Shown piece after piece: positions 374 to 32,732 of a stretch of DNA of 64,000 bases. Under the pieces are notes generated by a model that was not told the DNA's origin, did no database searches, and worked only from the letters and a program-made list of their open reading frames with translations. Source of the DNA: a virus. Lineage: Duplodnaviria > Caudoviricetes. The translations under genes and the position numbers were made by a program. Within the stretch, counting starts at the first letter, position 1; the number at the start of each line of letters is the position of its first letter. The stretch lies in IMG/VR virus record IMGVR_UViG_3300024269_004845; one strand, given 5' to 3'.

Positions 374-899
374 ATTTAAAAATGTCGTTGATAACGATTA
401 TTTCTTTGCCGCTTTTTCGTGCATAATCAATACAATTTTTGGTACCCCCTGTGGTACCGTTCCAAACAGCAATTACAACATCTGCATTATCTACCATATA
501 AATATTTCTTAATTGTAATTTTTGCGGGGAATATGTTTTTTGTGGTAAATATTTATTGTATTGAGAAATTGTATCAACATAGGTGACCTTATCTGCTTTG
601 TCGAGATGTTCAAAATGACGATTTTGTTGTTCTTTAGTCCATTTCGTATATTGATATTCGAATGGGATTGCTAATTCTACAGTTATGTCATATCCCTGTG
701 ATTTTAGTTTTTGAAGGACCATAAAGGCTATCTGGTCAACTCCTAATGCGCCGCCGCAAAGAAAGTGATTGGCACCTTTATTTATTAGTTTTATAATTTC
801 TTTTCTAAGTTCTTTGCCTAATGCAATATTTTCGGGGGAATAGTAATAATATCCTCCTGGTAATTTAGAGGGTCTATGCCCTGTAAAACATACTTTCAT
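372..899 (-). CDS. SLOG superfamily protein, YspA/DUF1273-like
   Basis: CFTGHRP, GGALGVD, RNIYMVDNAD, GGTKNCIDYA motifs. Confidence 0.85.
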   Translation of the reverse strand: MKVCFTGHRPSKLPGGYYYYSPENIALGKELRKEIIKLINKGANHFLCGGALGVDQIAFMVLQKLKSQGYDITVELAIPFEYQYTKWTKEQQNRHFEHLDKADKVTYVDTISQYNKYLPQKTYSPQKLQLRNIYMVDNADVVIAVWNGTTGGTKNCIDYARKSGKEIIVINDIFK

Positions 900-7244: not shown

Positions 7245-7928
7245 ATGCTTAAATTTTTGGGAAATGGTAGTGGATTTACGCCATATCATAATAATTGTTA
7301 TTTTACGAAAGATGAAAATTTAACTTTTATCGATTTAAGTATGTTAAATATAGAAAAGGCTCTTACTATTCAAAATGAATATAAAAACGTATCAGTGCTT
7401 ATAACTCATATGCATGATGACCATGTAAGCGGTATTGGATTGTTTGCGCAGTATTTGTTTTATGTTTATAAAAAGAAATTAACAATTCTAATCCCCAGTG
7501 CTTTGCTTTCGGATATTATGGAAGAACTAAAAATAAAGGGTATATCAAACAACATTGTCAATATCATTATTATTAATGATGGTTACGATTTTGTTGAAAA
7601 AGTTATTGCTACTTCTCATACTTCTGAATTATCTGGAAAGTGTTTTGGATATAAATTAAATATTGACAATAAAAAAATTGTTTATACTGGCGATACAAAT
7701 CGAATAAATGACTTTATTTCTTATTTAAATGATGTAGACGAATTTTATATTGACGTTTCTTATAGTTATGGCGGGGTTCATTTGAAATGGGATGATATCA
7801 AAGAAACATTGATTGATATTGCTAAAACTTGTGATGTTTATATTATGCATATGGATAATATAAACGCTTTTAAGATGTTGAAATTAGAAGATAAAAACAT
7901 AAAATTAGTCGGAAGGGTTATGATTTAA
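7245..7928 (+). CDS. metallo-beta-lactamase fold hydrolase, RNase Z/BN-like
   Basis: FLGNGSGF, ITHMHDDH, YTGDT, GVHL, YIMH. Confidence 0.75.
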   Translation: MLKFLGNGSGFTPYHNNCYFTKDENLTFIDLSMLNIEKALTIQNEYKNVSVLITHMHDDHVSGIGLFAQYLFYVYKKKLTILIPSALLSDIMEELKIKGISNNIVNIIIINDGYDFVEKVIATSHTSELSGKCFGYKLNIDNKKIVYTGDTNRINDFISYLNDVDEFYIDVSYSYGGVHLKWDDIKETLIDIAKTCDVYIMHMDNINAFKMLKLEDKNIKLVGRVMI

Positions 7929-12520: not shown

Positions 12521-13300
12521 TTACTTAAACAGATGTTTTGTGTTTGGTATAAAAATGGGAATTTCTTTTCTTTTATGAATAGAACCAACTTCTTTATTAT
12601 GAATTTTTTCATATACGGAATTTTCAAGGTCCACAAAAGGATTTCTAAGATACTCATGGACATCTACATACTTAATGCCCAACTTCTCTTCGTCACTCAT
12701 TCCAGATAATCCATCATCAGGGGTCTTGTGGATGAGGTCTGTGGGGATATTTTCATAAGTATCACCAATAGCAACAACTTCGAGGCTTGTTAAATTTCCA
12801 AGAGGATTGAAATCGCTTGCTCCATCTCCCCACTTAGTAAAATATCCAAGAGTTCTTTCACTCATATTACCAGTGCCACAAACTCTATAACCACCGCCCA
12901 TAGACTGAGCAACGGTATAGAGAGTTGTCATTCTAAGACGAGGAGCAATATTTACAGAAGCTTCTTCAGTAATTTTTTTTCTTTCGGGAGAAAGTCCTAC
13001 ATTAATAAATGCTGAAAGTTCGTTGAATGCTGAACCGATATTTACTGTAATGCTCTTGATTCCTAAAACCTCAACTACTCTTTTAGAATCTAAAATATCT
13101 TTCTGAACGCCATTTGGCATAAGAACACCGAGGACGTTTTCTGGTCCTAGGGCTTCGGCGCAAAGAGCAGCTGCTACAGTGCTATCCTTACCTCCAGAAA
13201 TACCAAGAACTACTCCTTTAAGACCGTGGTTCTTCATTTCTTGAATCCATTTAACAATGTCTGCTCGTACTTCACGAGCATTAAAATTGTAATTAGTCAT
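12521..13300 (-). CDS. nadE: NH3-dependent NAD+ synthetase
   Basis: GISGGKDS, NIAPRLRM, GYFTKWGDG, PDDGL, DEEKLG. Confidence 0.92.
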   Translation of the reverse strand: MTNYNFNAREVRADIVKWIQEMKNHGLKGVVLGISGGKDSTVAAALCAEALGPENVLGVLMPNGVQKDILDSKRVVEVLGIKSITVNIGSAFNELSAFINVGLSPERKKITEEASVNIAPRLRMTTLYTVAQSMGGGYRVCGTGNMSERTLGYFTKWGDGASDFNPLGNLTSLEVVAIGDTYENIPTDLIHKTPDDGLSGMSDEEKLGIKYVDVHEYLRNPFVDLENSVYEKIHNKEVGSIHKRKEIPIFIPNTKHLFK

Positions 13301-14120
13301 CGATATTACCCCCAATCTCAATAGTTGTTACATGGTCATCATTAAAATGACGAATAATACTATTTGTAGTATAAACATGGTCAATGTGTCCTTCAGAGAA
13401 AAGAGGCCCATCTACAATTACATTTTCACAATGGGTTACCCAAAGGGATACCTGATTTACGCCCTTTTCTTTAAGTGCCATACTAGCGAACTTAAAAGTA
13501 TTACCATACACACAGATATCGTCGATAATAAGGACGTTCTTTCCAGTCAGGTCAATACCTTCGTCTCCAACAATCTTAGAACAAAGGATTCTGCCCTTAT
13601 TTTCAAGGTCTCTTACTTTCTCAGCATAAATTACAGGATACTTAGAACAAATATCCTTATATCTTTCAGTATATTTCTTACGAGCGCCCTTATCGGGGAA
13701 CATAATAATATCAACGTTAAGGTTCTTAATAACATCGGTAATTACATTCTCCAATGGCATAATAACAAGGTTGTTAATTAGGTTCTCAGAAACAATGGAA
13801 TGTGGGTCCAGAACCTTAACCTTGGTGAAGCCAAGAGAATTAATCACATTTGCGAAGAATTCCAGAGAAAAAATCTGGTCGTTGATTTCTCTATCCATAC
13901 GAGAATAAGGGATATAGGGCATATATAGTTCGATAGCGCCGTTGGGAACCTTAGAACGGAGATAACCAATTGCCATAATCAAATTGGTTATATCTCGGTT
14001 ATCTTCAAAATACATTTCTACTTCATTCTTGTCAAAGAAAAGTAAATCTACCGTCTTATAAATGGCTTCATTGTTCTTGAAGGTTTCGCCACCAAAAACC
14101 TGTCCGTTGATTTTAATCAT
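13293..14120 (-). CDS. ribose-phosphate pyrophosphokinase-like protein (PRS or ADPR-PP synthase type)
   Basis: MPYIPYSRMDR, LDPHS, FPDKGA, IIDDICVYGNTF, VTH. Confidence 0.85.
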   Translation of the reverse strand: MIKINGQVFGGETFKNNEAIYKTVDLLFFDKNEVEMYFEDNRDITNLIMAIGYLRSKVPNGAIELYMPYIPYSRMDREINDQIFSLEFFANVINSLGFTKVKVLDPHSIVSENLINNLVIMPLENVITDVIKNLNVDIIMFPDKGARKKYTERYKDICSKYPVIYAEKVRDLENKGRILCSKIVGDEGIDLTGKNVLIIDDICVYGNTFKFASMALKEKGVNQVSLWVTHCENVIVDGPLFSEGHIDHVYTTNSIIRHFNDDHVTTIEIGGNIDD

Positions 14121-14125
14121 ATTTT

Positions 14126-14653
14126 TTAACCCCCAATTACATTAATCTGACACATTTTCATAGTAGTAAGTGCTGCATTATGTGTGTCAGGAGTAACACC
14201 AGCACAACATGTAGCGTCTATGGCTACATCAATTTCAGGAAGAGCAGCCTTGATAAGCATTGCGTTAGATACAACACAAATATCAGTACAAAGCCCAATA
14301 AGCTCTACATAGTCATATTTTCCGCCGACAACCATTTCGGGAAGATTGACACTTCCGAAAGTAATCTTATCAATTACTGTAACATCAACTTCTGCGGTCA
14401 TCAAAGCGTCCTTTACTTCATCGTTGATTTCGTGACCAGGAGTGTGTTTGATACAATGAGGAACAGGAAGATACTTACCTTCTCTGGTGTTCATATAATC
14501 GTTAGTATGAGTATCTCGAGTAGCAATAATATCTCCATCCCAGTCGTTAATCTTCTTAACGACATTAGGAACAATTGCTACTGCTTCTTTGGTGCCAAGA
14601 GCACCATCAATAAAGTCATTTTGCATATCGACAACAATTAAAAGCTTTTTCAT
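14126..14653 (-). CDS. pncA: nicotinamidase (cysteine hydrolase)
   Basis: VDMQNDF, DTH, HC, K.TFGS, GLCTDICV; lies in NAD operon. Confidence 0.85.
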   Translation of the reverse strand: MKKLLIVVDMQNDFIDGALGTKEAVAIVPNVVKKINDWDGDIIATRDTHTNDYMNTREGKYLPVPHCIKHTPGHEINDEVKDALMTAEVDVTVIDKITFGSVNLPEMVVGGKYDYVELIGLCTDICVVSNAMLIKAALPEIDVAIDATCCAGVTPDTHNAALTTMKMCQINVIGG

Positions 14654-14671
14654 AATAAAATCCCCCTTAAA

Positions 14672-15400
14672 TTAAAATTTTTGTGTATGATTTTCGTTAT
14701 ACTGATAGTATTCAGCAGGACGGTGAGCGGAGCCGTCATCCTTCATAGTGTTAGTGGTAATCAGCTTGTCGCCCATCTTACGACGGAAACCCTGTACCTT
14801 GCGACCCAGAATTGCCTGATATACCATTTCCAGCTCCTTAACAGTGAAATACTTAGGAACGAAATTAAATGCTACATCGGTGTATTCAATCTTGTTCTGT
14901 ACTCGATTAAACGCATCAATGATAATCTGCTTATGGTCAAATGCCAGGTCCTGAGTAGCGTATCTGCGGTCTTCAGACTGAACACAAATATTGGTTACCT
15001 TGCCAGACTTGTCACGCTCAGGAATAACCCAAAACCACATAGCATCGTGCATGTCAATATCTTCCTTCTTTACAAGTGCCATATGTGCGACGCTTACTAC
15101 TCGGCCTCTTTCATCTCGGTTAGGATTACCGTAGGTATAAAGCTGTTCCATATACAGGTTGTCAATACCAGTCTTTAGAAATAGCTTGTTCTTGGCTGCT
15201 TCGTAGATATCCTTATCAATATCAACAAAGCCACCAGGAAGGGCCCAACGACCCATAAAAGGTTCAATATTACGCTTTAGAAGCAGAACTTGAATACCTT
15301 TTTCAGGAACCTTTCGAGTATCATCAGTCTTAATATCTTCAGTTGCGAAAATAACGATGTCGGTCGCAACACTCATCTTAGGATAATCATTAAAAGTCAT
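14672..15400 (-). CDS. nrtR: NrtR-family ADP-ribose-sensing regulator (Nudix + wHTH)
   Basis: WALPGGFV, degenerate Nudix box, EQLYTYG..RD.RGRVVS, LAFDH, FTVKEL, HRPAEYY. Confidence 0.88.
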   Translation of the reverse strand: MTFNDYPKMSVATDIVIFATEDIKTDDTRKVPEKGIQVLLLKRNIEPFMGRWALPGGFVDIDKDIYEAAKNKLFLKTGIDNLYMEQLYTYGNPNRDERGRVVSVAHMALVKKEDIDMHDAMWFWVIPERDKSGKVTNICVQSEDRRYATQDLAFDHKQIIIDAFNRVQNKIEYTDVAFNFVPKYFTVKELEMVYQAILGRKVQGFRRKMGDKLITTNTMKDDGSAHRPAEYYQYNENHTQKF

Positions 15401-21132: not shown

Positions 21133-22866
21133 TTAAAATGCACCACAGTGTAGTCTGTCACGAATAGTCTTGAGGTCTTCATCTACAAGAAGCTTGCCAT
21201 CCTTAAATACAGGGCGAAGTAGATTATCTGCATACTCGGGGTTAGTCATTTCTTTAAATGTATGATGGTCAGTATAACGAATATCATCGCCATCTCGGAA
21301 GAGATAACAGAGGCCTTTCTGAGACTTCTTGAAATTATTACCCTTAATCTTGTCAGTAATAGGGTCCTTATAAATCTGACGTTCCTCTCCATTGATAATA
21401 CTATTAGTAGCTTTTAAAGCGAATCCTAGAGAGTCCCTCGTATTGTACTGGTAGGTAAAGCTACCCACGCCAAGCGTACAGTTATTAACTGCGAATCCCT
21501 TTTCTGCGAGACGAGTATAAATAGCAATTGCTCTTTCAGGCGTAATGCTATCACCATAAATAGCGCCAATATGAGGGTCGAGTACCTTATAACCCTTGCT
21601 GTTAATAGTACCACCGAAGATTTCCCAAAGAAGTTCAACAGTACCCTTCATAGCAGGAGTAATTTCGGCCTTTTCGAAATCTACATACTCAACAGTTTCA
21701 GTATAGTATCCATCACCATCTTCGTCAGTGGTCCAAGCATGGTCACAAGTTACCTTGTAAAGATAATCGCCAATTCTTACTCGATACCAAGTTTCAGAAG
21801 CGCCATTATAAGAATATTCATCTTCGGCTTTCTTCTTAAAGTAATCCTTGATACCGTCTTCAGTCAGACCATCTACTACCATGTAGTCGGAACCCTTGAG
21901 CTCACCACAGATAATATCAATGGGGTCACCGCTATCACCACGAATGATAATCTTACCATTACGGGCCATAATGGACTTCTTTAGACGAGGTAGATAATTA
22001 GTAATTACATTCCAGTAATCATAGGTGTCAGATACCATACTCAGAGGGCCAGTCTTAAATACATCCTCGATTAGATGACGATAGCATTCAAATTCACCTT
22101 CACGACCGTAAGAACTCATAACAGAGTGTTCGGTAGAAGGAACTCCACGGCCTACGGTTTCCTTGGTACAATCGCAGTTGTAGAAGTCTTCAAGCCACAT
22201 AATAGAAGCAATAGTAGCAGTACCAGTGAAAGAAAGAAGATGTCCTGCGCTGGACTTATATGCGGTATCCTTAGAAGTCATACCACGCATAGAGAAGTCA
22301 CCGCAAGCGCTGGAAGGTACGCCATTCTCAACTGTAAGTTCAAAGAACTTTTCAACGATTTCACGGTACTTATAAGCGATTGTAGCAGCAGTCATAGGAT
22401 GCCAAATATTTACACTGATATAGGTTTCAAGATAATTAACGAGCCAACCAAAACCCTTGACAGTATTAGAAATTTCAAACATTGGGGTCTTGATATTTAC
22501 ACGAGTACCCTCGGCAACAGCCTTAATCTGGATAGGTAGATAACCAAGGTCGTAAAGCTTCTTCATTTCAGTGGTATCAGCAGCCTGCTCAGTCATGGTA
22601 TGAGCAATGACACGCTTATATTCTGCTTCAATCTCTTCCCAAGGACGACCGAAGAAATGCTTTTCAAAAGCATCAATTAGATATTCCTTAATAAGACCCT
22701 GAAGACCAAACATAACAACCTTATTTACGCCCTCAATACGAGTCATACGAGGAGTCCAATAAGAAACAAGAAATTCCAGACCAGGCACATATGCCAGGTG
22801 ATGAATTGTCTTATAAAAGTCAGTTTCGAGCAATGGATTAATAGTGTGAGTTCTTGCGTTATTCAT
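21133..22866 (-). CDS. NAMPT/NadV-family phosphoribosyl- or ADP-ribosyl-transferase
   Basis: TDFYK, DFSMRG, PSTEHSVM, SMVSDTYD, RGDSGDP, IYGDSIT, GVGS, TRD, KDP; about 80 aa acidic insert after DPIDIICG. Confidence 0.9.
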   Translation of the reverse strand: MNNARTHTINPLLETDFYKTIHHLAYVPGLEFLVSYWTPRMTRIEGVNKVVMFGLQGLIKEYLIDAFEKHFFGRPWEEIEAEYKRVIAHTMTEQAADTTEMKKLYDLGYLPIQIKAVAEGTRVNIKTPMFEISNTVKGFGWLVNYLETYISVNIWHPMTAATIAYKYREIVEKFFELTVENGVPSSACGDFSMRGMTSKDTAYKSSAGHLLSFTGTATIASIMWLEDFYNCDCTKETVGRGVPSTEHSVMSSYGREGEFECYRHLIEDVFKTGPLSMVSDTYDYWNVITNYLPRLKKSIMARNGKIIIRGDSGDPIDIICGELKGSDYMVVDGLTEDGIKDYFKKKAEDEYSYNGASETWYRVRIGDYLYKVTCDHAWTTDEDGDGYYTETVEYVDFEKAEITPAMKGTVELLWEIFGGTINSKGYKVLDPHIGAIYGDSITPERAIAIYTRLAEKGFAVNNCTLGVGSFTYQYNTRDSLGFALKATNSIINGEERQIYKDPITDKIKGNNFKKSQKGLCYLFRDGDDIRYTDHHTFKEMTNPEYADNLLRPVFKDGKLLVDEDLKTIRDRLHCGAF

Positions 22867-22909
22867 AAAAATTTCCCCCTTAGTGAAATTTATTTTTTAT
22901 TATTATATT

Positions 22910-22934
22910 ACTTAAATACATTTTGTATCTAAGT
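22910..22934. promoter_or_regulatory. candidate operator upstream of NAMPT-like gene
   Basis: ACTTAAATACATTTTGTATCTAAGT near-palindrome just downstream of a TTGACT...TATAGT promoter. Confidence 0.6.
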
Positions 22935-22991
22935 CTATATATACTATAACATATTTTTTTAAAAAAGTCAAGTAAAATGTCTTACTAAAAC

Positions 22992-23022
22992 AAAAAATGC
23001 TACTGAAAATTTCAGTAGCATT
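22992..23022 (-). terminator. intrinsic terminator closing the tRNA array
   Basis: AATGCTACTGAAA/TTTCAGTAGCATT-type stem followed by T-tract on minus strand. Confidence 0.75.
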
Positions 23023-23029
23023 AAAATTA

Positions 23030-23123
23030 TGGCGGAGACGGGGAGGCTCGAACTCCCGCACCGTTTTTTAGACGGCCTACCTCATTAGCAGTGAGGCCTC
23101 GTCACCATCTTGAGTACGTCTCC
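23030..23123 (-). tRNA. tRNA-Ser(GCT)
   Basis: cloverleaf, CCTCA-ctGCTaa-TGAGG, long V-arm, G73-CCA. Confidence 0.95.
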
Positions 23124-23133
23124 ATACACACTA

Positions 23134-23355
23134 TTATTCCAGCGTGAAGTATTGGATTTTCTCATATGAGAAACCAATATCTTCATGCGGAACATAGAAA
23201 ATTTCCTTTATAAGAGGGAGAAATTGATTATCTGGACGTTGCATTTCTTCAACGACCATGATAGCTGTGTCTTCATCAGGAACTATTAATATGGGAAGGC
23301 GATTAAAATCATCATATTCACCATATGAACCTTGAATCAGAAACATAACAATCAA
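23134..23355 (-). CDS. hypothetical protein
   Basis: acidic 73 aa ORF, GSYGEYDD motif. Confidence 0.55.
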   Translation of the reverse strand: MIVMFLIQGSYGEYDDFNRLPILIVPDEDTAIMVVEEMQRPDNQFLPLIKEIFYVPHEDIGFSYEKIQYFTLE

Positions 23356-23498
23356 ACCCTCGCAGAAAAATTTAAGGAGTGACTATTTCGAACATCCCAT
23401 CACTCACGGGGGCTCATTTGATTTCTCGTGAACGTTGCTCTTAAGTCCATGGGCTCAGATGCGTTGTCCCGATATGGCGCAGTGACGTAACTGCGCAA

Positions 23499-23810
23499 TT
23501 AACGAAGATTATGCATGAGCATAAAATTAGTGATAAAGTGACGCAAGAACTTACGAAGTTCTTCTTCATCAAGTGAAGTAGTCTCCTTTAAGGAACGCAA
23601 AACTTCATTACCTAAAGAGGTGACCTTGTGGTAGTTGTTATCTTCAAGAACGTTTCCGAAAATTTCAACCATATCATCAGAACTGTAATCTTCTGGTTCG
23701 ACTACTTTGTTGTAGTCTCCTATATCCTCTTCTGCGTAATCAGATATAGGTCCATAGAAATATGCTCTGTTTCCACTCGGGTTTTCCATAACGGTCCAAT
23801 TTCTAAACAT
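23499..23810 (-). CDS. hypothetical protein
   Basis: GGAG SD, acidic 103 aa. Confidence 0.65.
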   Translation of the reverse strand: MFRNWTVMENPSGNRAYFYGPISDYAEEDIGDYNKVVEPEDYSSDDMVEIFGNVLEDNNYHKVTSLGNEVLRSLKETTSLDEEELRKFLRHFITNFMLMHNLR

Positions 23811-23834
23811 ATATAATCTCCATTCTCAAAGAAA

Positions 23835-24168
23835 ATATGGCATTCGACCTGCAATCCGCAATCCTTCTTAACTAGGGAGTAGCGAGTTTTATCCCTTGTA
23901 CTTCGGGCACCTACTTTACCCCTCATGCTTTAGTCTCCATTTAAGGCCTCTGGCTGTTGCCACCAAGATTAACTTTGAATATATTAGGTAGATACTGCAC
24001 CCTCTTATGGGCATCGTCACTACTATTCGGTTTCGATAAATTATAAAACTTATCAAAACCTATAAGGATTATCCTTAATCGCAGTATTTAATAGAAACTA
24101 AATCATAATCATACGACTTAGTTTCAAGAGAGATATGGCGAACTATACCTCTCTATGACTCACTTACC
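23835..24168 (-). ncRNA. candidate multi-helix structured RNA (about 330 nt)
   Basis: hairpins 24127-24154, 24094-24125 and 24029-24060 whose mismatches are all G-U on the minus strand; boundaries approximate. Confidence 0.5.
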
Positions 24169-24310
24169 TGGAGCTGGTGGTCGGACTCGAACCGACAACC
24201 TACTGATTATGGTGGTTATCACAAGATTTGAACTCATATCTCCGACTAGCGGTGTCTTTCTTAGACGAGACAACCCAAGTCAGTTGCGCTGCCAATTGCG
24301 CCACACCAGC
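24169..24310 (-). tRNA. tRNA-Thr(TGT) interrupted between positions 35 and 36 by a 66-nt insert
   Basis: 35-nt 5' half (24276-24310) plus 41-nt 3' half (24169-24209) give a canonical 76-nt cloverleaf. Confidence 0.9.
24210..24275 (-). ncRNA. nested mini-tRNA (acceptor, D, shrunken anticodon, T arms, ACCA)
   Basis: GGTTGTC TC GTCT AAGAA AGAC A CCG CTAGT CGG AGAT ATGAG TTCAAAT CTTGT GATAACC A CCA. Confidence 0.85.
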
Positions 24311-24492
24311 ATATAGCCTATTTTGATTAAAGACCCAAATTAATCATATTCACTCGATTAATAAGAGTTTATTATATAACTAATAAGATGCTTTCGATTA
24401 ACCACTACTAACATCTAGCCTCTAATCCTGTATAGGGACAGGCACTTGGCTTTTTTTGTTGAGAACGCTATAGTGCGAAGTGAAACATTTAA

Positions 24493-24569
24493 TGGTAGGC
24501 CTGAAGGGACTTGAACCCCTGACCAAGCGCTTATGAGGCGCCAGCTCTAACCAACTGAGCTACAGGCCT
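24493..24569 (-). tRNA. tRNA(CAT), probably Ile2 rather than Met
   Basis: ctCATaa loop, Ile-like body AGGCCTGTAGCTCAGTTGGTTAGAGC, C4-G69, A73. Confidence 0.85.
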
Positions 24570-24814
24570 ATATAAAATGAGGGAATAGCATCATCACCCT
24601 CGATGGCACGTTGTGCGAGCTGCCTTCGGAAAGTCGCCGTCTCGTAATCCACATTCACGGACTTACTTCAGCAATGTAGATACGGTTTAACCATGCCCAA
24701 ACCATACAACGCTTCTGCCTCAACTGCATCGCTCAAAATGGGCTCCTACCGCAAAGTAACTAGCCGTTTTGTATATCAAACCTAGTTAGAAAAATTACTC
24801 TTGCGCAAGAGATA

Positions 24815-24901
24815 TGGTGCCGCAGGCGGGAATCGAACCCGCACACTGTTTCCAGTAAGGGTTTTTGAGACCCTCGCGTCTGCCTGTTCCGCCACTGCGG
24901 C
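24815..24901 (-). tRNA. tRNA-Leu(CAA)
   Basis: AGGGT-ctCAAaa-ACCCT, long V-arm, ACCA. Confidence 0.95.
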
Positions 24902-24921
24902 ATATCACTTTCAACATATTT

Positions 24922-24950
24922 ATTATAACATATTATTCCCTCAAAGTCAA
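24922..24950 (-). promoter_or_regulatory. sigma70/SigA promoter inside tRNA array
   Basis: TTGACT-N17-TATAAT with TG extension. Confidence 0.8.
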
Positions 24951-24978
24951 GTATTTTCGGGCTTTTTTGAAAGTTTTT

Positions 24979-25055
24979 TGGGGTCGAGGGCAGGACTCGA
25001 ACCTGCAAGGACTGGGGTTAATCCCCAGTATGTCTTCCAATTCCACCACCTCGAC
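24979..25055 (-). tRNA. aberrant tRNA-like gene (nominal anticodon TTA, A33, C73)
   Basis: perfect acceptor and T arms; anticodon arm CTGGGG-ATTAA-CCCCAG; Leu-like D-loop but short V-loop. Confidence 0.75.
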
Positions 25056-25062
25056 AAATAAA

Positions 25063-25239
25063 AGATACTAAACCTGCACTCCCGATTCTCCAAGCAGGAC
25101 AACCCTCTATTCCAAACCATATTATTTGGAACCCTTATAGGCGTCAACAAACGGGTCATAGCTATTTTGTCATCTACATGTTATTCCCATAATTACTTAC
25201 AGGCACTCGATATCGTACTTTTACTACCATTTAGTATCT
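25063..25239 (-). ncRNA. candidate structured spacer RNA (177 nt)
   Basis: closed by 10-bp AGATACTAAA/TTTAGTATCT, fills the spacer between two tRNAs. Confidence 0.45.
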
Positions 25240-25240
25240 A

Positions 25241-25332
25241 TGGCGGAGGCGGTGAGGTTCGAACTCACGCGGCGCTATTAACGCCCTACTCCCTTTCCAG
25301 GGGAGCCCCTTTGACCACTTGGGTACACCTCC
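25241..25332 (-). tRNA. tRNA-Ser(GGA)
   Basis: CTCCC-ctGGAaa-GGGAG, long V-arm, GCCA. Confidence 0.95.
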
Positions 25333-25343
25333 ATAAAATTAAG

Positions 25344-25572
25344 AAACCACCGACAACAGTCGCTTACGATTTTCACGCTGTCTCCAAGTCATGAGCTTGG
25401 CGCTTTATATTCGCATAGTATCAACAAGCAAGTGAATCATGACTTTCACCCGTTATCTTGTGACTTGTGCCTTCTAAGCTATTTGCCCCTATCACGATTA
25501 TCCTTTATGCGCTGGACCAGCTGGCGGGCATTCTATTAAGCATTCCTATTATTTCAAGGCTATCAGTGGTTT
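25344..25572 (-). ncRNA. candidate structured spacer RNA (229 nt)
   Basis: 14-bp closing helix AAACCACTGATAGC/GTTGTCGGTGGTTT with 3 G-U pairs, begins right after a tRNA CCA. Confidence 0.55.
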
Positions 25573-25691
25573 TGGTGGGAGAGGTTGGATTCGAACCAAC
25601 GAACGGTGAGCAACCGACCTTTTTTACGTGATAAGGTGCTAATCTTATCATGGTGCACCAAGGCTCCTTTAACCTCTTGGATACTCTCTCC
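25573..25691 (-). tRNA. tRNA-Tyr(GTA)-like gene with about 29-nt insert in the anticodon loop
   Basis: Tyr-type D-arm, V-arm, T-arm and ACCA; 31 nt instead of 2 between anticodon stem and GTAAA. Confidence 0.7.
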
Positions 25692-25713
25692 ATATATGCC
25701 GCAAATGCGGCTA

Positions 25714-25956
25714 TTAATATCCTTCTCTAATACAATTTCTAATCATTTCTTTAGTCCAAGGAGTTGTATCCTGGCAAGCAAAATGATTAATTGCCATTAG
25801 TGGAAGTTTATTTTTATTTAGTTCTTTCTTAATAAAAGAAATCATATCATCAGCTTCTTCATCATTGACAAAGAAGTCGAAACCTAAAGTAACAGGACCA
25901 CCACATCGAATATCGACGGGGTCGTTTCTTTCACAATCAACTATGATTTTTCTCAT
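25714..25956 (-). CDS. hypothetical protein
   Basis: GGAGG SD, 80 aa. Confidence 0.65.
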   Translation of the reverse strand: MRKIIVDCERNDPVDIRCGGPVTLGFDFFVNDEEADDMISFIKKELNKNKLPLMAINHFACQDTTPWTKEMIRNCIREGY

Positions 25957-25984
25957 ATATTAGATTCCTCCTGTGATTGTTTCT

Positions 25985-26070
25985 TGGTGGGCCAGGCTGG
26001 ACTTGAACCAGCAATGCCGTGAGGCGCCTGATTTACAGTCAGGTGGGGTTACCAATTTTCCTACTGACCC
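25985..26070 (-). tRNA. tRNA-Tyr(GTA), G1-C72
   Basis: CCTGA-ctGTAaa-TCAGG, V-arm, ACCA. Confidence 0.93.
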
Positions 26071-26073
26071 ATA

Positions 26074-26156
26074 TGGTAGGCCAGGTGGGTGCCGACCCCA
26101 CTACCCCGAAGGAACGGTTTTACAGACCGCCGCGTTTGCCGATTCGCTACTGACCT
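26074..26156 (-). tRNA. tRNA-Tyr(GTA), A1-U72, atypical T-loop GTCGGCA
   Basis: GCGGT-ctGTAaa-ACCGT, V-arm, ACCA. Confidence 0.88.
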
Positions 26157-26162
26157 ATATAA

Positions 26163-26251
26163 TGGTCCCTGGGGTCAGATTTGAACTGACAGTGTTTCTT
26201 ATGTCACGGTTTTACAGACCGCTGGCTTCAACCAATTCGCCACACCCAGGG
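26163..26251 (-). tRNA. tRNA-Tyr(GTA), C1-G72
   Basis: CCCTGGG/CCCAGGG acceptor, ctGTAaa loop, long V region, ACCA. Confidence 0.88.
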
Positions 26252-26287
26252 ATATATAATTACATTTAAGATAAAATTGATTTTAAT

Positions 26288-26332
26288 GGCAACATTAACT
26301 TAAAGAATTATATATCCCTAAGTTAAGTTGCC
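26288..26332 (-). promoter_or_regulatory. switch hairpin between Tyr leader ORF and tRNA-Tyr
   Basis: GGCAAC-TTAACTTA...TAAGTTAA-t-GTTGCC enclosing AGGGATATATAATT, the complement of 26248-26261. Confidence 0.7.
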
Positions 26333-26358
26333 TAAATATACTGATAATATCGATACAT
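26332..26358 (-). CDS. Tyr-rich leader peptide MYRYYQYI
   Basis: AAAAGGAG-9nt-ATG TAT CGA TAT TAT CAG TAT ATT TAG directly upstream of three tRNA-Tyr. Confidence 0.75.
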   Translation of the reverse strand: MYRYYQYI

Positions 26359-26407
26359 TTAGTACAACTCCTTTTAATTTATTTTTATTGGTCCCTACTT
26401 AAAGGGA

Positions 26408-26502
26408 TGGCGGTAGCGGAGGGATTCGAACCCCCATGTCGGTTCAAAGCCGACACACAAGATTTCAAGTCTAGGCCGTTATAACCATTTCGGTACGCTA
26501 CC
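26408..26502 (-). tRNA. tRNA-Ser(TGA)
   Basis: ctTGAaa loop, long V-arm, GCCA; one mismatch in anticodon stem. Confidence 0.92.
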
Positions 26503-26518
26503 ATATATAATTTGTAAA

Positions 26519-26615
26519 TGGCGGGGAAGGTAGGATTTGAACCCACGTGCCCAAGGTAAAAACGGACAACCTCTTTTCGAGAGAGGCGCAATCAGCCAGA
26601 CTCTGCCACTTCCCC
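26519..26615 (-). tRNA. tRNA-Ser(CGA)
   Basis: CCTCT-ctCGAaa-AGAGG, long V-arm, GCCA. Confidence 0.93.
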
Positions 26616-26760
26616 ATGTGCGATTCTTAAGCAATTTACAAATTGCAGTCTATTAGAGGCCCTGCAACACTCTAACACTTACAATAAGATTTCACTTAAA
26701 CATTGTTATTCTTCGTAAGGACTCCGCCACTCTTACATCAGATGGGAGCGACCCATCAAC

Positions 26761-26837
26761 TGGTAGGCCCTCTGGGGCTCGAACCCAGGACCGAGCGCTT
26801 ATGAGGCGCTAGCTCTAACCGACTGAGCTAAGGGCCT
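26761..26837 (-). tRNA. tRNA(CAT), probably Ile2
   Basis: AGCGC-ctCATaa-GCGCT, paralog of 24493-24569. Confidence 0.85.
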
Positions 26838-26840
26838 ATA

Positions 26841-27002
26841 TAATACAATAAGCTGTTTATCTCATTCCATTTACCACAGCTACTTTTTCATATATCCAAG
26901 ACCTTCTACATCCTTGGCAATTCTCTCTACTGACCTTTCGGGCCTTGTTCGATACACTTTTGACAAGGGAGGGATATATGCTTCGTGGCACTTATCGTAT
27001 TA
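26841..27002 (-). ncRNA. candidate structured spacer RNA (162 nt)
   Basis: 12-bp closing helix TAATACGATAAG/CTTATTGTATTA with one G-U. Confidence 0.5.
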
Positions 27003-27206
27003 AAAATATTTCAACTATTGGTATTCTATTCCTAAACTATCACGCCGCCTAAGCACACGATGTCGGATTTTCACCGATGTCTCCAATCAATTGAAAAAAT
27101 AACAGGCTGTTCATCAAACTCCACTTAGCCGTTTCGTAACTTCCATCCACCCTCTCGTGGGACACAAAGACTGCGGCACCTATTATTGAAAGAGTATTGC
27201 TACTCA

Positions 27207-27293
27207 TGGTGCGGATGGGGGGACTTGAACCCCCACGGGATTGCTCCCACAAGCACCTCAAGCTTGCGTGTCTGCCTATTCCACCACACCCGC
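27207..27293 (-). tRNA. tRNA-Leu(GAG)
   Basis: CAAGC-ttGAGgt-GCTTG, V-arm, ACCA. Confidence 0.95.
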
Positions 27294-27297
27294 ATAT

Positions 27298-27585
27298 TTA
27301 CATAAAACAATCTCTAATCAATCGATTATAAAGAGTAGAGTCTGTTCTTTTTAGCTCAGCAAGAGGTTGGACAATTTCATCTGGCATAACAATTCCAGTA
27401 GCATCATAGAAAACACCATCAATTTTGGTGATAAAGTGTCCTCTGATTGGCATGTAATAGATTCTTGCATAAGGGAAGCGCTTACATAAAATAAGTGCAA
27501 ACCAAAGGCAATTACCATCAATCCAATTAGCGTCCTTTTTCCATCTACGACGAATAAAATCCAATACTTCTTCTTGCTTATTCAA
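27298..27585 (-). CDS. hypothetical phage-type protein
   Basis: AAGGAG SD; GNCLWFA...GHF...FYDATG (Cys-His-Asp pattern). Confidence 0.7.
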   Translation of the reverse strand: MNKQEEVLDFIRRRWKKDANWIDGNCLWFALILCKRFPYARIYYMPIRGHFITKIDGVFYDATGIVMPDEIVQPLAELKRTDSTLYNRLIRDCFM

Positions 27586-27610
27586 TTAAAAATCTCCTTT
27601 ATCAGAGATA

Positions 27611-27697
27611 TGGTGCCGCTGACGGGAATCGAACCCGTATGAGGTTTCCCTCGAGGGATTTTAAGTCCCTTGTGTCTGCCAGTTCCACCACAGCGGC
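27611..27697 (-). tRNA. tRNA-Leu(TAA)
   Basis: AGGGA-ctTAAaa-TCCCT, V-arm, ACCA. Confidence 0.95.
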
Positions 27698-27946
27698 ATA
27701 TAGAAAATCCCAAAACTAATCAGCTGTTAATCAAACACCATTACTCCAGCACTTTAAACGCTTGCAGGTGTCAAACCTAGCACTTTATGCGGTTCTCGGA
27801 GCACTAACCATTTTGGGGGCTGATTCAACATCAGTCGTACTACATATAAAGGGGTGTTCAATCTTTCTCAGTTAAACTACTACTCAATATATGTATCCAA
27901 TACGCACGGTCTCCCGCGATATTGCCTTTGGGCCAACTTAATGGCT

Positions 27947-28029
27947 TGGTGCTGGCGGTGGGACTCGAACCCACACGGTTGCCCACTGGTTCCTAAGACC
28001 AGCGCGTCTGCCAATTCCGCCACGCCAGC
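27947..28029 (-). tRNA. tRNA-Leu(TAG)
   Basis: CTGGT-ctTAGga-ACCAG, V-arm, ACCA. Confidence 0.95.
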
Positions 28030-28041
28030 ATGTGGAGGATA

Positions 28042-28530
28042 TTAATAACTATCCTCGCCGTTTAGAGAATCATCATTAAAAATCCAATCCTCTACACGCA
28101 ATACTCGGTAGTTGTCCTTGTCGTCTCTGACAACAACAGTATCGATACCAGCATTGATAATCATTCTCTTGCACATAGAGCAAGGTTCAGACTTTGCTAC
28201 GTAAGCACCAGTATCCTTTTCCTTACCACAGAGATAAAGAGTAGCACCAATCATCTTTTCACGAGAAGCAGAAATAATAGCATTTGCTTCAGCATGAACA
28301 CTGCGGCAAAGTTCATATCTAGTACCACGAGGTACATTGAGCTTAGCACGAATACAAGTACCTACGTCACAACAATTCTTTCTTCCACGAGGTGCACCTA
28401 CATAACCAGTAGAAACAATCTCGTCATTCTTAACGATTACTGCACCATAATTACGTCTTAGACAGGTGCCACGTTCAAGAACAGTTTCAGCGATATCGAG
28501 GTAATAATTTGTCTTATCAATTCTATTCAT
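28042..28530 (-). CDS. dCMP deaminase family protein
   Basis: TCLRR.YGAVIV, VHAEANAII, PCSMC; start ATG 28530 after AAGGAG. Confidence 0.9.
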   Translation of the reverse strand: MNRIDKTNYYLDIAETVLERGTCLRRNYGAVIVKNDEIVSTGYVGAPRGRKNCCDVGTCIRAKLNVPRGTRYELCRSVHAEANAIISASREKMIGATLYLCGKEKDTGAYVAKSEPCSMCKRMIINAGIDTVVVRDDKDNYRVLRVEDWIFNDDSLNGEDSY

Positions 28531-31403: not shown

Positions 31404-32732
31404 GTGTTTTTACCAAAAGATGTTTTGAAAGTTTTGAATAAATTAAATGATGCAGGATATGAATCGTATGTTGTGGGAGGAGCTGTTAGAGACCATGTAA
31501 TGGGATTGGAACCTCATGATTATGACATTACTACTTCTGCGCTACCAAGCCAAATCAAAGAAGTATTTCCCGAACACTTTGCTCTTGGAGAAAAGTTTGG
31601 TACTATTTCTGTAATTACTGATTCTGAGCCTATCGAAGTTACTACTTTTCGAAAGGATTCCGATTATTCCGATGGCCGACATCCTGATAAAATCGAATTT
31701 GTGACTTCTGTGTATGATGATTTATGCAGACGAGATTTCACAATGAATGCTATTGCATTCAATCCTAAAACTGGGTTTGTCGACCCATTTAATGGGATTA
31801 TGGATATTGAAAACAAGTTGATTCGATGTGTAAATAATCCTATTGATAGATTCAATGAAGACGGTTTAAGAATTCTTCGTGCGGCTAGATTTGCTGCTAA
31901 ATTGGGATTCGATATCGAGCAAAAAACGTTGGTAGGCATGCAAAATACCATCAATATGCTTGATTGTGTCGCTGAGGAACGTATTGGTCCTGAATTTGTA
32001 AAAATTTTGATGTCTGACCACGCAGAAAAGACTTTGCATGATTATGCTTTTGTAATTAAAAAAATTATTCCAGAATATTGCAGAGTTCTTAGATGTAAGC
32101 AAAATAATCCTCACCACATTTATACGCTCGAAGGTCATACATTGAAGGTTGTCGAAAACGTGCCGAAAAAAGAAATTGTTCGTCTGGCTGCTTTTTTCCA
32201 TGACATTGGTAAGCCATATGTTATGGTTAAGGATAAGGACGGTATTGAACATTTTCCTGGTCATGCAAGAAAAGGCGCAGAACTAACAGAAAAAATTATG
32301 ACACGGCTCCGTTTTTCAAGTAAAGAAATTAAAGATGTAAGCGATTTGGTTAAGTATCATGATTCTTTCTGGAAGCCAACTAAGAGAATAACTAAAAATC
32401 TTCTTAGTAAGTTGGGTGATGAATTATTCTTTGATATTGTAGAACTTCGAAAAGCTGATATTCTTGCACAGGCATCAAAAAATGATAATAGCATTGAGAC
32501 TCTTTTGATGTTCTATAATCAAATTAAAGAAGAAAATTCTGCTATTACACTAAAGGATTTGGCTATTGATGGTAACGACTTAATCAACGAATGTCATATT
32601 CATCCATCTCCTTTATTCAAGAAAGTCCTAAATACCTTACTTGAAATGGTGATGGATGAAGTAATTAAAAATGACAAGGCAATTTTACTTGAAGAGGCAA
32701 AAAAAATTATTCAAAACGAAAAAGACTGTTGA
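31404..32732 (+). CDS. cca: CCA-adding tRNA nucleotidyltransferase with HD domain
   Basis: VGGAVRD, DYDITT, RRDFTMNAIA, EDGLRILRAARF, H...FFHDIGKP...H...HD. Confidence 0.9.
   Translation: MFLPKDVLKVLNKLNDAGYESYVVGGAVRDHVMGLEPHDYDITTSALPSQIKEVFPEHFALGEKFGTISVITDSEPIEVTTFRKDSDYSDGRHPDKIEFVTSVYDDLCRRDFTMNAIAFNPKTGFVDPFNGIMDIENKLIRCVNNPIDRFNEDGLRILRAARFAAKLGFDIEQKTLVGMQNTINMLDCVAEERIGPEFVKILMSDHAEKTLHDYAFVIKKIIPEYCRVLRCKQNNPHHIYTLEGHTLKVVENVPKKEIVRLAAFFHDIGKPYVMVKDKDGIEHFPGHARKGAELTEKIMTRLRFSSKEIKDVSDLVKYHDSFWKPTKRITKNLLSKLGDELFFDIVELRKADILAQASKNDNSIETLLMFYNQIKEENSAITLKDLAIDGNDLINECHIHPSPLFKKVLNTLLEMVMDEVIKNDKAILLEEAKKIIQNEKDC

Follow-up and report, generated by a model that had tools for sequence, protein, structure and literature searches.

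The tRNA-Thr(UGU) gene in the tRNA array of this phage DNA raises the question of whether a tRNA gene whose anticodon is interrupted by a second, tRNA-shaped sequence can still yield a working tRNA and, if so, by what route. The gene occupies 142 nt on the minus strand (24310–24169) of the window, by which we mean the whole 64-kb stretch of DNA that was analysed, and is located between tRNA-Met(cat) and tRNA-Ser(gct); it consists of a 76-nt tRNA-Thr(UGU) split between G35 and U36 by 66 nt (24275–24210), and is not called by ARAGORN in its default mode. The first-pass annotation had claimed that deletion of 24210–24275 leaves a flawless tRNA-Thr of 76 nt, and ARAGORN bears this out to the nucleotide: 24310–24276 (35 nt) and 24209–24169 (41 nt), joined on the minus strand, are read as a 76-nt tRNA-Thr(tgt) that has a perfect cloverleaf, U73 and a CCA specified by the gene. 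On the same joined sequence, the 5' exon (24276–24310, minus strand; tRNA positions 1–35) comprises the 5' strand of the acceptor stem, the D arm, the 5' strand of the anticodon stem and C32, U33, U34 and G35, and the 3' exon (24169–24209, minus strand; U36 to A76) comprises A37, A38, the 3' strand of the anticodon stem, the variable loop, the T arm, the 3' strand of the acceptor stem, U73 and CCA. As predicted from the sequence, the spliced junction would read CUUG joined to UAAUCAGU. The intron option of ARAGORN offers instead a tRNA-Pro(tgg) with a 66-nt intron placed one base off, which we rejected on the evidence of the intronless homologues described below (contig L129 and phage records L100–L102), all of which have CTTGTAA; TG|T is the correct register because it alone restores the TGT anticodon and the CTTGTAA loop of these homologues. 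Judged by the identity set of Escherichia coli ThrRS, from which the host's own rules may differ, the joined molecule has all the elements of a threonine tRNA, namely G1-C72 and C2-G71 (the Thr identity pairs of E. coli), G35 and U36, and all are invariant in L129 and L100. The interrupted gene is the sole Thr tRNA gene of the array, and ACA makes up 34% of the Thr codons in the 44 ORFs of the window.

The 66 nt themselves (24210–24275, minus strand) have the shape of a mini-tRNA that runs from G1 to CCA, an assignment based on Rfam, on the predicted fold and on the absence of the segment from L129. The Rfam tRNA model RF00005 matches 24275–24213 over model positions 1–71 with 34.3 bits, the cut-off being 29 (E=0.0021 when the entire 64-kb window is compared with all 4227 families; 1e-5 for a local 301 nt); the first inserted base is model position 1, and the last three, which lie beyond the match, are CCA. 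A tRNA match that fills the insert from end to end is far beyond chance. It had been claimed from the letters alone that the insert spans its own cloverleaf from G1 to CCA, and each of the arms then listed is found in the Rfam alignment: an acceptor stem of 7 bp including one G-U, with A as discriminator; a D stem of 4 bp closed by the 5-nt loop AAGAA, which lacks the GG; at the position of the anticodon arm, a 3-bp stem and the 5-nt loop CUAGU in place of a 5-bp stem, a 7-nt loop and U33; and a T arm with a 5-bp stem and the loop UUCAAAU. ARAGORN calls no tRNA in the insert alone, and a mini-tRNA of this sequence would be unable to decode. When folded by itself the insert is predicted to be cloverleaf-like, with a weak z-score of -1.4. 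The nested double cloverleaf lies 4.2 kcal/mol above the predicted minimum free energy (MFE) of the 142-mer and the cloverleaf of the spliced tRNA 2.0 kcal/mol above its own, so that, in these predictions, the energy gaps of precursor and product are of the same order.

One JGI contig of the lineage (L103/L104) stops 150 nt downstream of the Thr gene, which could be taken to favour an origin of the insert as an assembly or chimera artefact. We find such an origin scarcely credible, because the identical 142 nt recur in a separate contig: L175, from a JGI metagenome and 4285 nt long, covers the whole gene and matches window 28333–24049 without a single difference (100% identity), and a 153.7-kb ENA contig shows the same gene spacing as the window. 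Flanking proteins identical to those of the window are indexed in 24–29 blocks of the collection, for the most part from contigs 50–200 kb long; one listed contig exceeds 200 kb, and samples with the element include JGI 3300022661, ENA ERZ27248351 and SRR7032241. Every readable intron-bearing copy is identical, and for this reason the insert shows no covariation; the uniformity of the copies is such that the insertion may be recent. Searches for further copies and variants gave little. An exact 26-mer of the insert has no match in IMG/VR, and BLAST of the insert against INPHARED gave none. A pattern of the outer anticodon stem with a 50–80-nt gap has 99 matches in IMG/VR, among all of which BLAST of the 142-nt gene recovered only L060, discussed below; a tightened version has 21 matches in JGI metagenomes, seemingly incomplete or tandemly repeated tRNA-Thr genes and att-like pieces, without inserts. 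A degenerate D-arm/T-loop pattern has a single match in IMG/VR, in a coding region and due to chance, and a pattern of this type has one in GTDB genomes, in an Acidobacteria metagenome-assembled genome, presumably also due to chance. No free-standing mini-tRNA is present in L129 or L130, or elsewhere in the array of the window.

An uninterrupted counterpart of the gene is found in L129, a 54-kb ENA contig whose NAMPT is 94% identical to that of the window. Its tRNA-Thr(tgt) scores 74.6 bits, and the array has the same order as in the window (Leu(caa), Met(cat), Thr, Ser(gct), NAMPT). By BLAST, window 24313–24276 aligns with L129 6374–6411 and window 24209–24168 with L129 6412–6453; L129 6411|6412 thus maps to window 24276|24209, with nothing of the insert between. 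Since the two blocks adjoin in L129, the 66 nt are an insertion relative to that contig, with edges exactly at 24275 and 24210. Intronless tRNA-Thr(tgt) genes that are near-identical to that of the window from the D loop to the T arm are also present in a 139-kb phage of IMG/VR (L100–L102). In the window, L129 and L100 alike, each of the 21 stem pairs of the outer tRNA is a standard pair, and 8 of them have changed on both sides; exons that covary and stay fully paired identify the outer gene as a tRNA evolved under structural constraint, without decay. The first-pass annotation had held that decay of the outer tRNA in homologues would tell against its reading; what the homologues contain is an intronless ortholog and compensatory exon changes. 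Of the same architecture and covariation that it had proposed to look for in phage genomes, the compensatory changes in the exons were found and variants of the insert were not.

The Thr locus is variable in the lineage: the closer relatives L130 and L134 (NAMPT 93–95% identical) lack the gene together with the whole of window 24440–23967, and L129 has it uninterrupted. The sequence 3' of the Thr CCA (23967–24168 and on to about 23835, minus strand) has no counterpart in L129, and the stretch after this CCA is missing along with the Thr gene in L130 and L134; from this pattern, the gene and its trailer may come and go as a single cassette. The Thr position is covered by only four (L129, L130, L134 and L175) of the 12 relative contigs that were looked up; in the more distant L132, L137 and L138, NAMPT has no array adjoining it, and a NAMPT-based search found no relatives in IMG/VR. 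A tRNA-Thr 5' part 94% identical to the 5' exon of the window is present at L126:401–445 (MT836340, human faecal virome), where the similarity stops right behind the anticodon loop and unrelated sequence begins; a fragment, an att site or a long intron could each account for this.

Besides the interrupted Thr gene, the array (23030–28029, minus strand; ARAGORN and Rfam) contains 14 other tRNA or tRNA-like genes called by ARAGORN and one Tyr-like gene, and CCA is encoded in 16/16 array genes. A leader YAUAU stands directly before +1 in most of the array genes and is absent before the nested mini-tRNA; it looks like a conserved processing context. A consensus scan, the only basis for either site, gave a promoter-like site with 11/12 matches and an extended -10 at 24922–24950 (minus strand), upstream of tRNA-Leu(caa), tRNA-Met(cat) and the interrupted Thr gene, and a terminator-like hairpin followed by a T run at 22996–23022 (minus strand), just after tRNA-Ser(gct). 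These are possible start and end points of a transcription unit containing the Thr gene. A CCA-adding enzyme with an HD domain (31404–32732, plus strand; Pfam PF01743, PF13735 and PF01966) is encoded 3.4 kb from the array, and is mentioned as context only, having no demonstrated tie to the insert. The call of tRNA-Stop(tta) by ARAGORN at 24979–25055 (minus strand) reaches only 24 bits in Rfam (as tRNA-Sec), and the gene is absent from the syntenic array of L129.

The Tyr-like gene (25691–25573, minus strand) escapes both ARAGORN and Rfam in its interrupted form, and is recognized by ARAGORN as a class II tRNA-Tyr(gta) once 29 nt are deleted. These 29 nt form a plain 7-bp hairpin just 5' of GTA and are not tRNA-shaped, for which reason we rejected the gene as a second case of the same kind. 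The gene, of which three intact paralogues exist, has the mismatches A2-C71 and G31-A39, and the third Tyr gene of L130 aligns with its 3' end. The gene would appear to be what decay looks like in this array; the Thr exons show none, and the contrast speaks for function of the Thr gene.

The carrier of the array has a GC content of about 32% and reads well in code 11; it is a large phage or phage-like element, with no virion genes within the 64-kb window, and its host is probably a member of the Bacillota, the nearest clusters of the NYN/LabA protein of the window being from that phylum. The 44 ORFs end in TAA (40), TGA (4) and TAG (0), the window shows no suppressor tRNA for TAG, and the absence of TAG may reflect AT bias only. 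A Lak phage was rejected as carrier, since Lak phages have 26% GC and code 15. Pfam, PHROGs and NCBIfam further identify DNA methylases, LigA, a flap nuclease, a SUV3-like helicase, RelA/SpoT, TelA and a YunG-like phage protein. A cluster of NrtR, PncA, PRS-like and NadE genes and a NAMPT-like gene (12521–15400 and 21133–22866, minus strand) together look like an NAD reconstitution set, and this set is found beside the tRNA array in L129, L130 and L134 also. A protein of the MBL fold (7245–7928, plus strand; 227 aa) was considered as an RNase Z and rejected, its closest solved relatives being 7fct and the anti-Pycsar protein Apyc1 (7u2s and 7t28); by this structural likeness it is likely to be a cyclic-nucleotide-degrading counter-defence enzyme.

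A tRNA within a tRNA intron has been described before, as the first-pass annotation had noted. In the tRNA-Thr(TGT) of Lak megaphages the intron 'itself may encode a tRNA', and the introns were called enigmatic (Devoto et al., 2019; PMC6784885, Fig. 4); intron-less alleles exist, and the predicted boundary of the Thr intron is one base off (PMC6784885, Table S6 and main text). A 2026 survey states in one sentence that the tRNA introns of jumbo phages 'could encode another tRNA' and counts 262 genomes, of alternatively coded phages only, giving no anatomy, boundaries or mechanism (Anim Microbiome; PMC13037316); the insert described here is likewise a tRNA-like sequence within a phage tRNA gene, in a standard-code carrier. 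Our full-text literature searches found no published mechanism for tRNA-containing tRNA introns. The likeness to Lak is close in that the insert lies in the anticodon loop of a phage tRNA of the same isoacceptor, Thr(TGT), its removal here restoring a canonical tRNA; in that it holds a tRNA-like element recognized by Rfam and is polymorphic for presence and absence, with precise edges, among relatives (here L129); and in that its 3' end is the 3' end of the embedded tRNA-like domain. When the four Lak introns of Table S6 were folded, the tRNA-like domain lay at the 3' end of the intron, and the Thr intron ends exactly at the discriminator, given the one-base correction made by the authors and an assumed canonical loop. 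The Lak introns differ in length (79–114 nt), in beginning with a hairpin and an A/T-rich linker and in ending at the discriminator without CCA, whereas the insert described here is the tRNA-like domain alone, from G1 to CCA, with neither 5' hairpin nor linker; it follows position 35, and the Lak Thr intron follows position 36. Local alignment of the insert with the Lak introns was no better than with shuffled sequences in three of four cases, and the Gly intron aligned via the generic T arm only.

Other known systems resemble the insert in part. To our knowledge, the only accepted tRNA introns of bacteria are self-splicing group I introns, and bacteria and their viruses have, by the textbook, no protein-spliced tRNA introns. 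Group I introns (tRNA-Leu(UAA), Azoarcus tRNA-Ile and others) also sit in the anticodon loop of bacterial-type tRNA genes, but are ribozymes of about 200 nt or longer with a P1–P9 core; with 66 nt, and no match to Intron_gpI at E<=1 in 22800–28300 (Rfam), the insert was rejected as a group I intron. The archaeal and eukaryal introns processed by EndA and by RtcB or Trl1 share the protein-dependent cut-and-ligate principle, and the archaeal ones also occur at non-canonical positions, but the bulge-helix-bulge route leaves 2',3'-cyclic phosphate and 5'-OH ends in place of the 3'-OH and 5'-phosphate proposed below. A bulge-helix-bulge (two 3-nt bulges and a 4-bp helix) was rejected by inspection, the outer anticodon stem meeting the inner acceptor stem at an internal loop of 4 by 7 nt, with both splice sites at the same helix end and only UAA between the 3' splice site and the outer anticodon stem. 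The mascRNA of MALAT1 may be likened to the insert as a tRNA-like fold of about 60 nt that has a shrunken anticodon arm and acts as a cutting signal within a longer RNA; it is eukaryotic, is released by RNase P and RNase Z from flanks that are not religated, and has its CCA added rather than encoded, and its Rfam family (RF01684) does not match the insert. In the repair system of phage T4 (cutting by PrrC, healing by Pnkp and sealing by Rnl1), Rnl1 seals a nick in the anticodon loop of a folded tRNA, as our proposal requires, but what is undone there is damage and not an encoded insert.

The reading that we put forward, as a tentative one, is that the tRNA-Thr(UGU) gene works and that its 66-nt insert behaves like an intron, being removed via RNase P, a 3' cut and a ligase. 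The comparison with relatives supports the intron; that it is spliced, and by these means, we infer. In the precursor both cloverleaves would form, with the outer anticodon stem as the base of the mini-tRNA. The RNase P of the host would then read the stacked acceptor and T arm of the insert together with its ACCA and cut between G35 of the outer and G1 of the inner cloverleaf, so that the 5' exon ends in a 3'-OH, and a second endonuclease would cut directly after the inner CCA with RNase Z-like chemistry, leaving a 5'-phosphate on U36. The exons, kept in place by the acceptor and anticodon stems of the outer tRNA, would amount to a tRNA nicked in its anticodon loop, the 3'-OH/5'-phosphate nick of which an ATP-dependent RNA ligase of the Rnl1 or Rnl2 type could seal without end healing; the products would be tRNA-Thr(UGU) and a free, CCA-ended, non-decoding mini-tRNA of 66 nt. 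Ligation of the RtcB type would be unfit because the cut ends would be 3'-OH and 5'-phosphate. RNase P and RNase Z chemistry both generate such ends, and Rnl-type ligases seal them in anticodon loops, as in the repair of PrrC cuts in T4. A coaxial stack of acceptor and T stems of 7+5 bp with RCCA is the minimal substrate of bacterial RNase P, and the shape of this substrate, if only the shape, is present in the insert, with a 12-bp stack (7 + 5 bp), UUCAAAU and ACCA. Edges that coincide exactly with +1 and CCA are most simply read as tRNA-end processing sites; in the Lak introns too, if the canonical CTTGTAA loop is assumed, the 3' splice site appears to track a tRNA 3' end in an unrelated lineage, which supports this view.

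Some features sit less easily with such a route. The favourable context of RNase P cleavage is absent from the insert, in which the base at -1 is G and G18/G19 are lacking; U occupies -1 in 16/16 array genes, as against G before the inner mini-tRNA, and because the D loop of the insert has no G18/G19, the elbow read by RNase P and RNase Z may be weak. In hosts of the Bacillus type, CCA inhibits RNase Z, and exonucleases complete the 3' ends of precursors with an encoded CCA. We know of a cut after CCA only from RNase Z of the Thermotoga type and RNase BN of E. coli. The cut after the inner CCA consequently has no obvious enzyme, since RNase Z of the Bacillus type would be blocked by CCA and exonucleases cannot free the 3' exon. 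Among the 44 ORFs of the 64-kb window, all compared with Pfam and 17 also with PHROGs and/or NCBIfam, there is no RNA ligase, and no gene for Rnl1, Rnl2, RtcB or Pnkp. The general mechanism may also be another, because the 5' hairpin of the Lak introns could not be removed by RNase P and RNase Z alone.

The absence of a ligase gene from the window would also fit a dead-end insertion, that is, a recent arrival of a mobile or mis-ligated tRNA-like element that inactivated the Thr gene and left exons too young to have decayed, with RNase P perhaps still freeing fragments and no functional tRNA-Thr being made. The identity of all readable intron-bearing copies would suit a young insertion; close relatives do without the gene (L130 and L134) or keep it uninterrupted (L129), and the array has other aberrant members, the tta-like and Tyr-like genes. 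A random insertion is, however, not expected to start and stop exactly at tRNA ends within an anticodon, the same design has been published for the tRNA-Thr(TGT) of Lak phages, in which the introns are identical across cohorts, and the lineage is successful, with identical flanking genes in >20 assemblies. Such a dead end we consider unlikely. Nor do we favour the view, which is quite improbable in our judgement, that the gene is functional without any splicing and that the composite RNA, or the tRNA halves and the mini-tRNA, act as decoys, sponges or signals against defences that target tRNAs. Defence against anticodon nucleases is a known role of phage tRNA arrays, the window abounds in counter-defence genes (the Apyc1-like MBL protein, NAD-reconstitution genes and methylases) and the array has other non-decoding tRNA-like genes, but a decoy would have no use for exons that join, in a single register, to give a perfect anticodon loop for Thr, and the ortholog of the gene is an ordinary tRNA-Thr of 74.6 bits. 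The suggestions of the first-pass annotation, that the anticodon is kept out of reach of anticodon nucleases until maturation or that a decoy is set free, gain no support from the sequences compared here.

A further possibility, decidedly unlikely in itself yet a rival to be reckoned with, is that the gene is spliced by a dedicated enzyme encoded by the element, the tRNA shape serving folding, mobility or a function of the excised RNA. An extra cut would be required by the hairpin and linker that precede the tRNA-like domain in Lak introns, and inserts of other shapes do occur in phage tRNAs. The complete 282.9-kb IMG/VR phage L060, with 53 tRNA matches, has a tRNA-Thr(TGT) at 599–723 (minus strand) whose anticodon and T arms are near-identical to those of the window and which carries, at the same TG|T site, a Y-shaped insert of 50 nt without CCA; two other tRNAs of this phage (28078–28177 and 18573–18674 of the record) have about 27–28 extra bases in the anticodon region. 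The tRNA-Tyr(gta) at L100:5692–5845 (minus strand; the same in L101/L102) has a 67-nt insert between positions 32 and 33 that is not tRNA-like (ARAGORN intron mode). This 139-kb phage also has a CTA suppressor tRNA. The window does encode uncharacterized nucleases and RNA enzymes (NYN/LabA, the SUV3-like helicase and the HD-domain CCA enzyme), but no candidate is linked to the array, and edges at +1 and CCA again point most simply to tRNA-end processing and not to an enzyme of another kind.

If the tentative reading of the 66 nt as an intron of a working gene is correct, it is tempting to speculate more widely. Introns of tRNA shape might represent a third route of tRNA splicing, dependent on proteins and present in elements that infect bacteria, by RNase P, a 3' endonuclease that respects CCA and a ligase of the Rnl type, and might spread by the reverse reaction, in which the RNA-repair ligase would join a free, CCA-ended mini-tRNA into a tRNA cut in its anticodon loop by an anticodon nuclease of the host and the product would be copied back to DNA. 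Route and spread together make up a single proposal that we regard as doubtful; were it true, these introns would be heritable scars of an arms race fought by tRNA cleavage.

The tRNA-in-tRNA intron is a kind already in print without a mechanism, and the insert described here is a minimal variant, in a standard-code element outside the Lak lineage. It makes a good substrate for experiment because the gene is only 142 nt long, has no extra hairpin and has tRNA ends as both of its splice sites. Should functional tRNA-Thr be made from the gene, there must be a cut-and-ligate route whose parts are the usual enzymes of tRNA-end processing; if that is true, the 'enigmatic' introns of the Lak phages would also be explained, and the tRNA shape would constitute a compact, programmable module for the excision of RNA.
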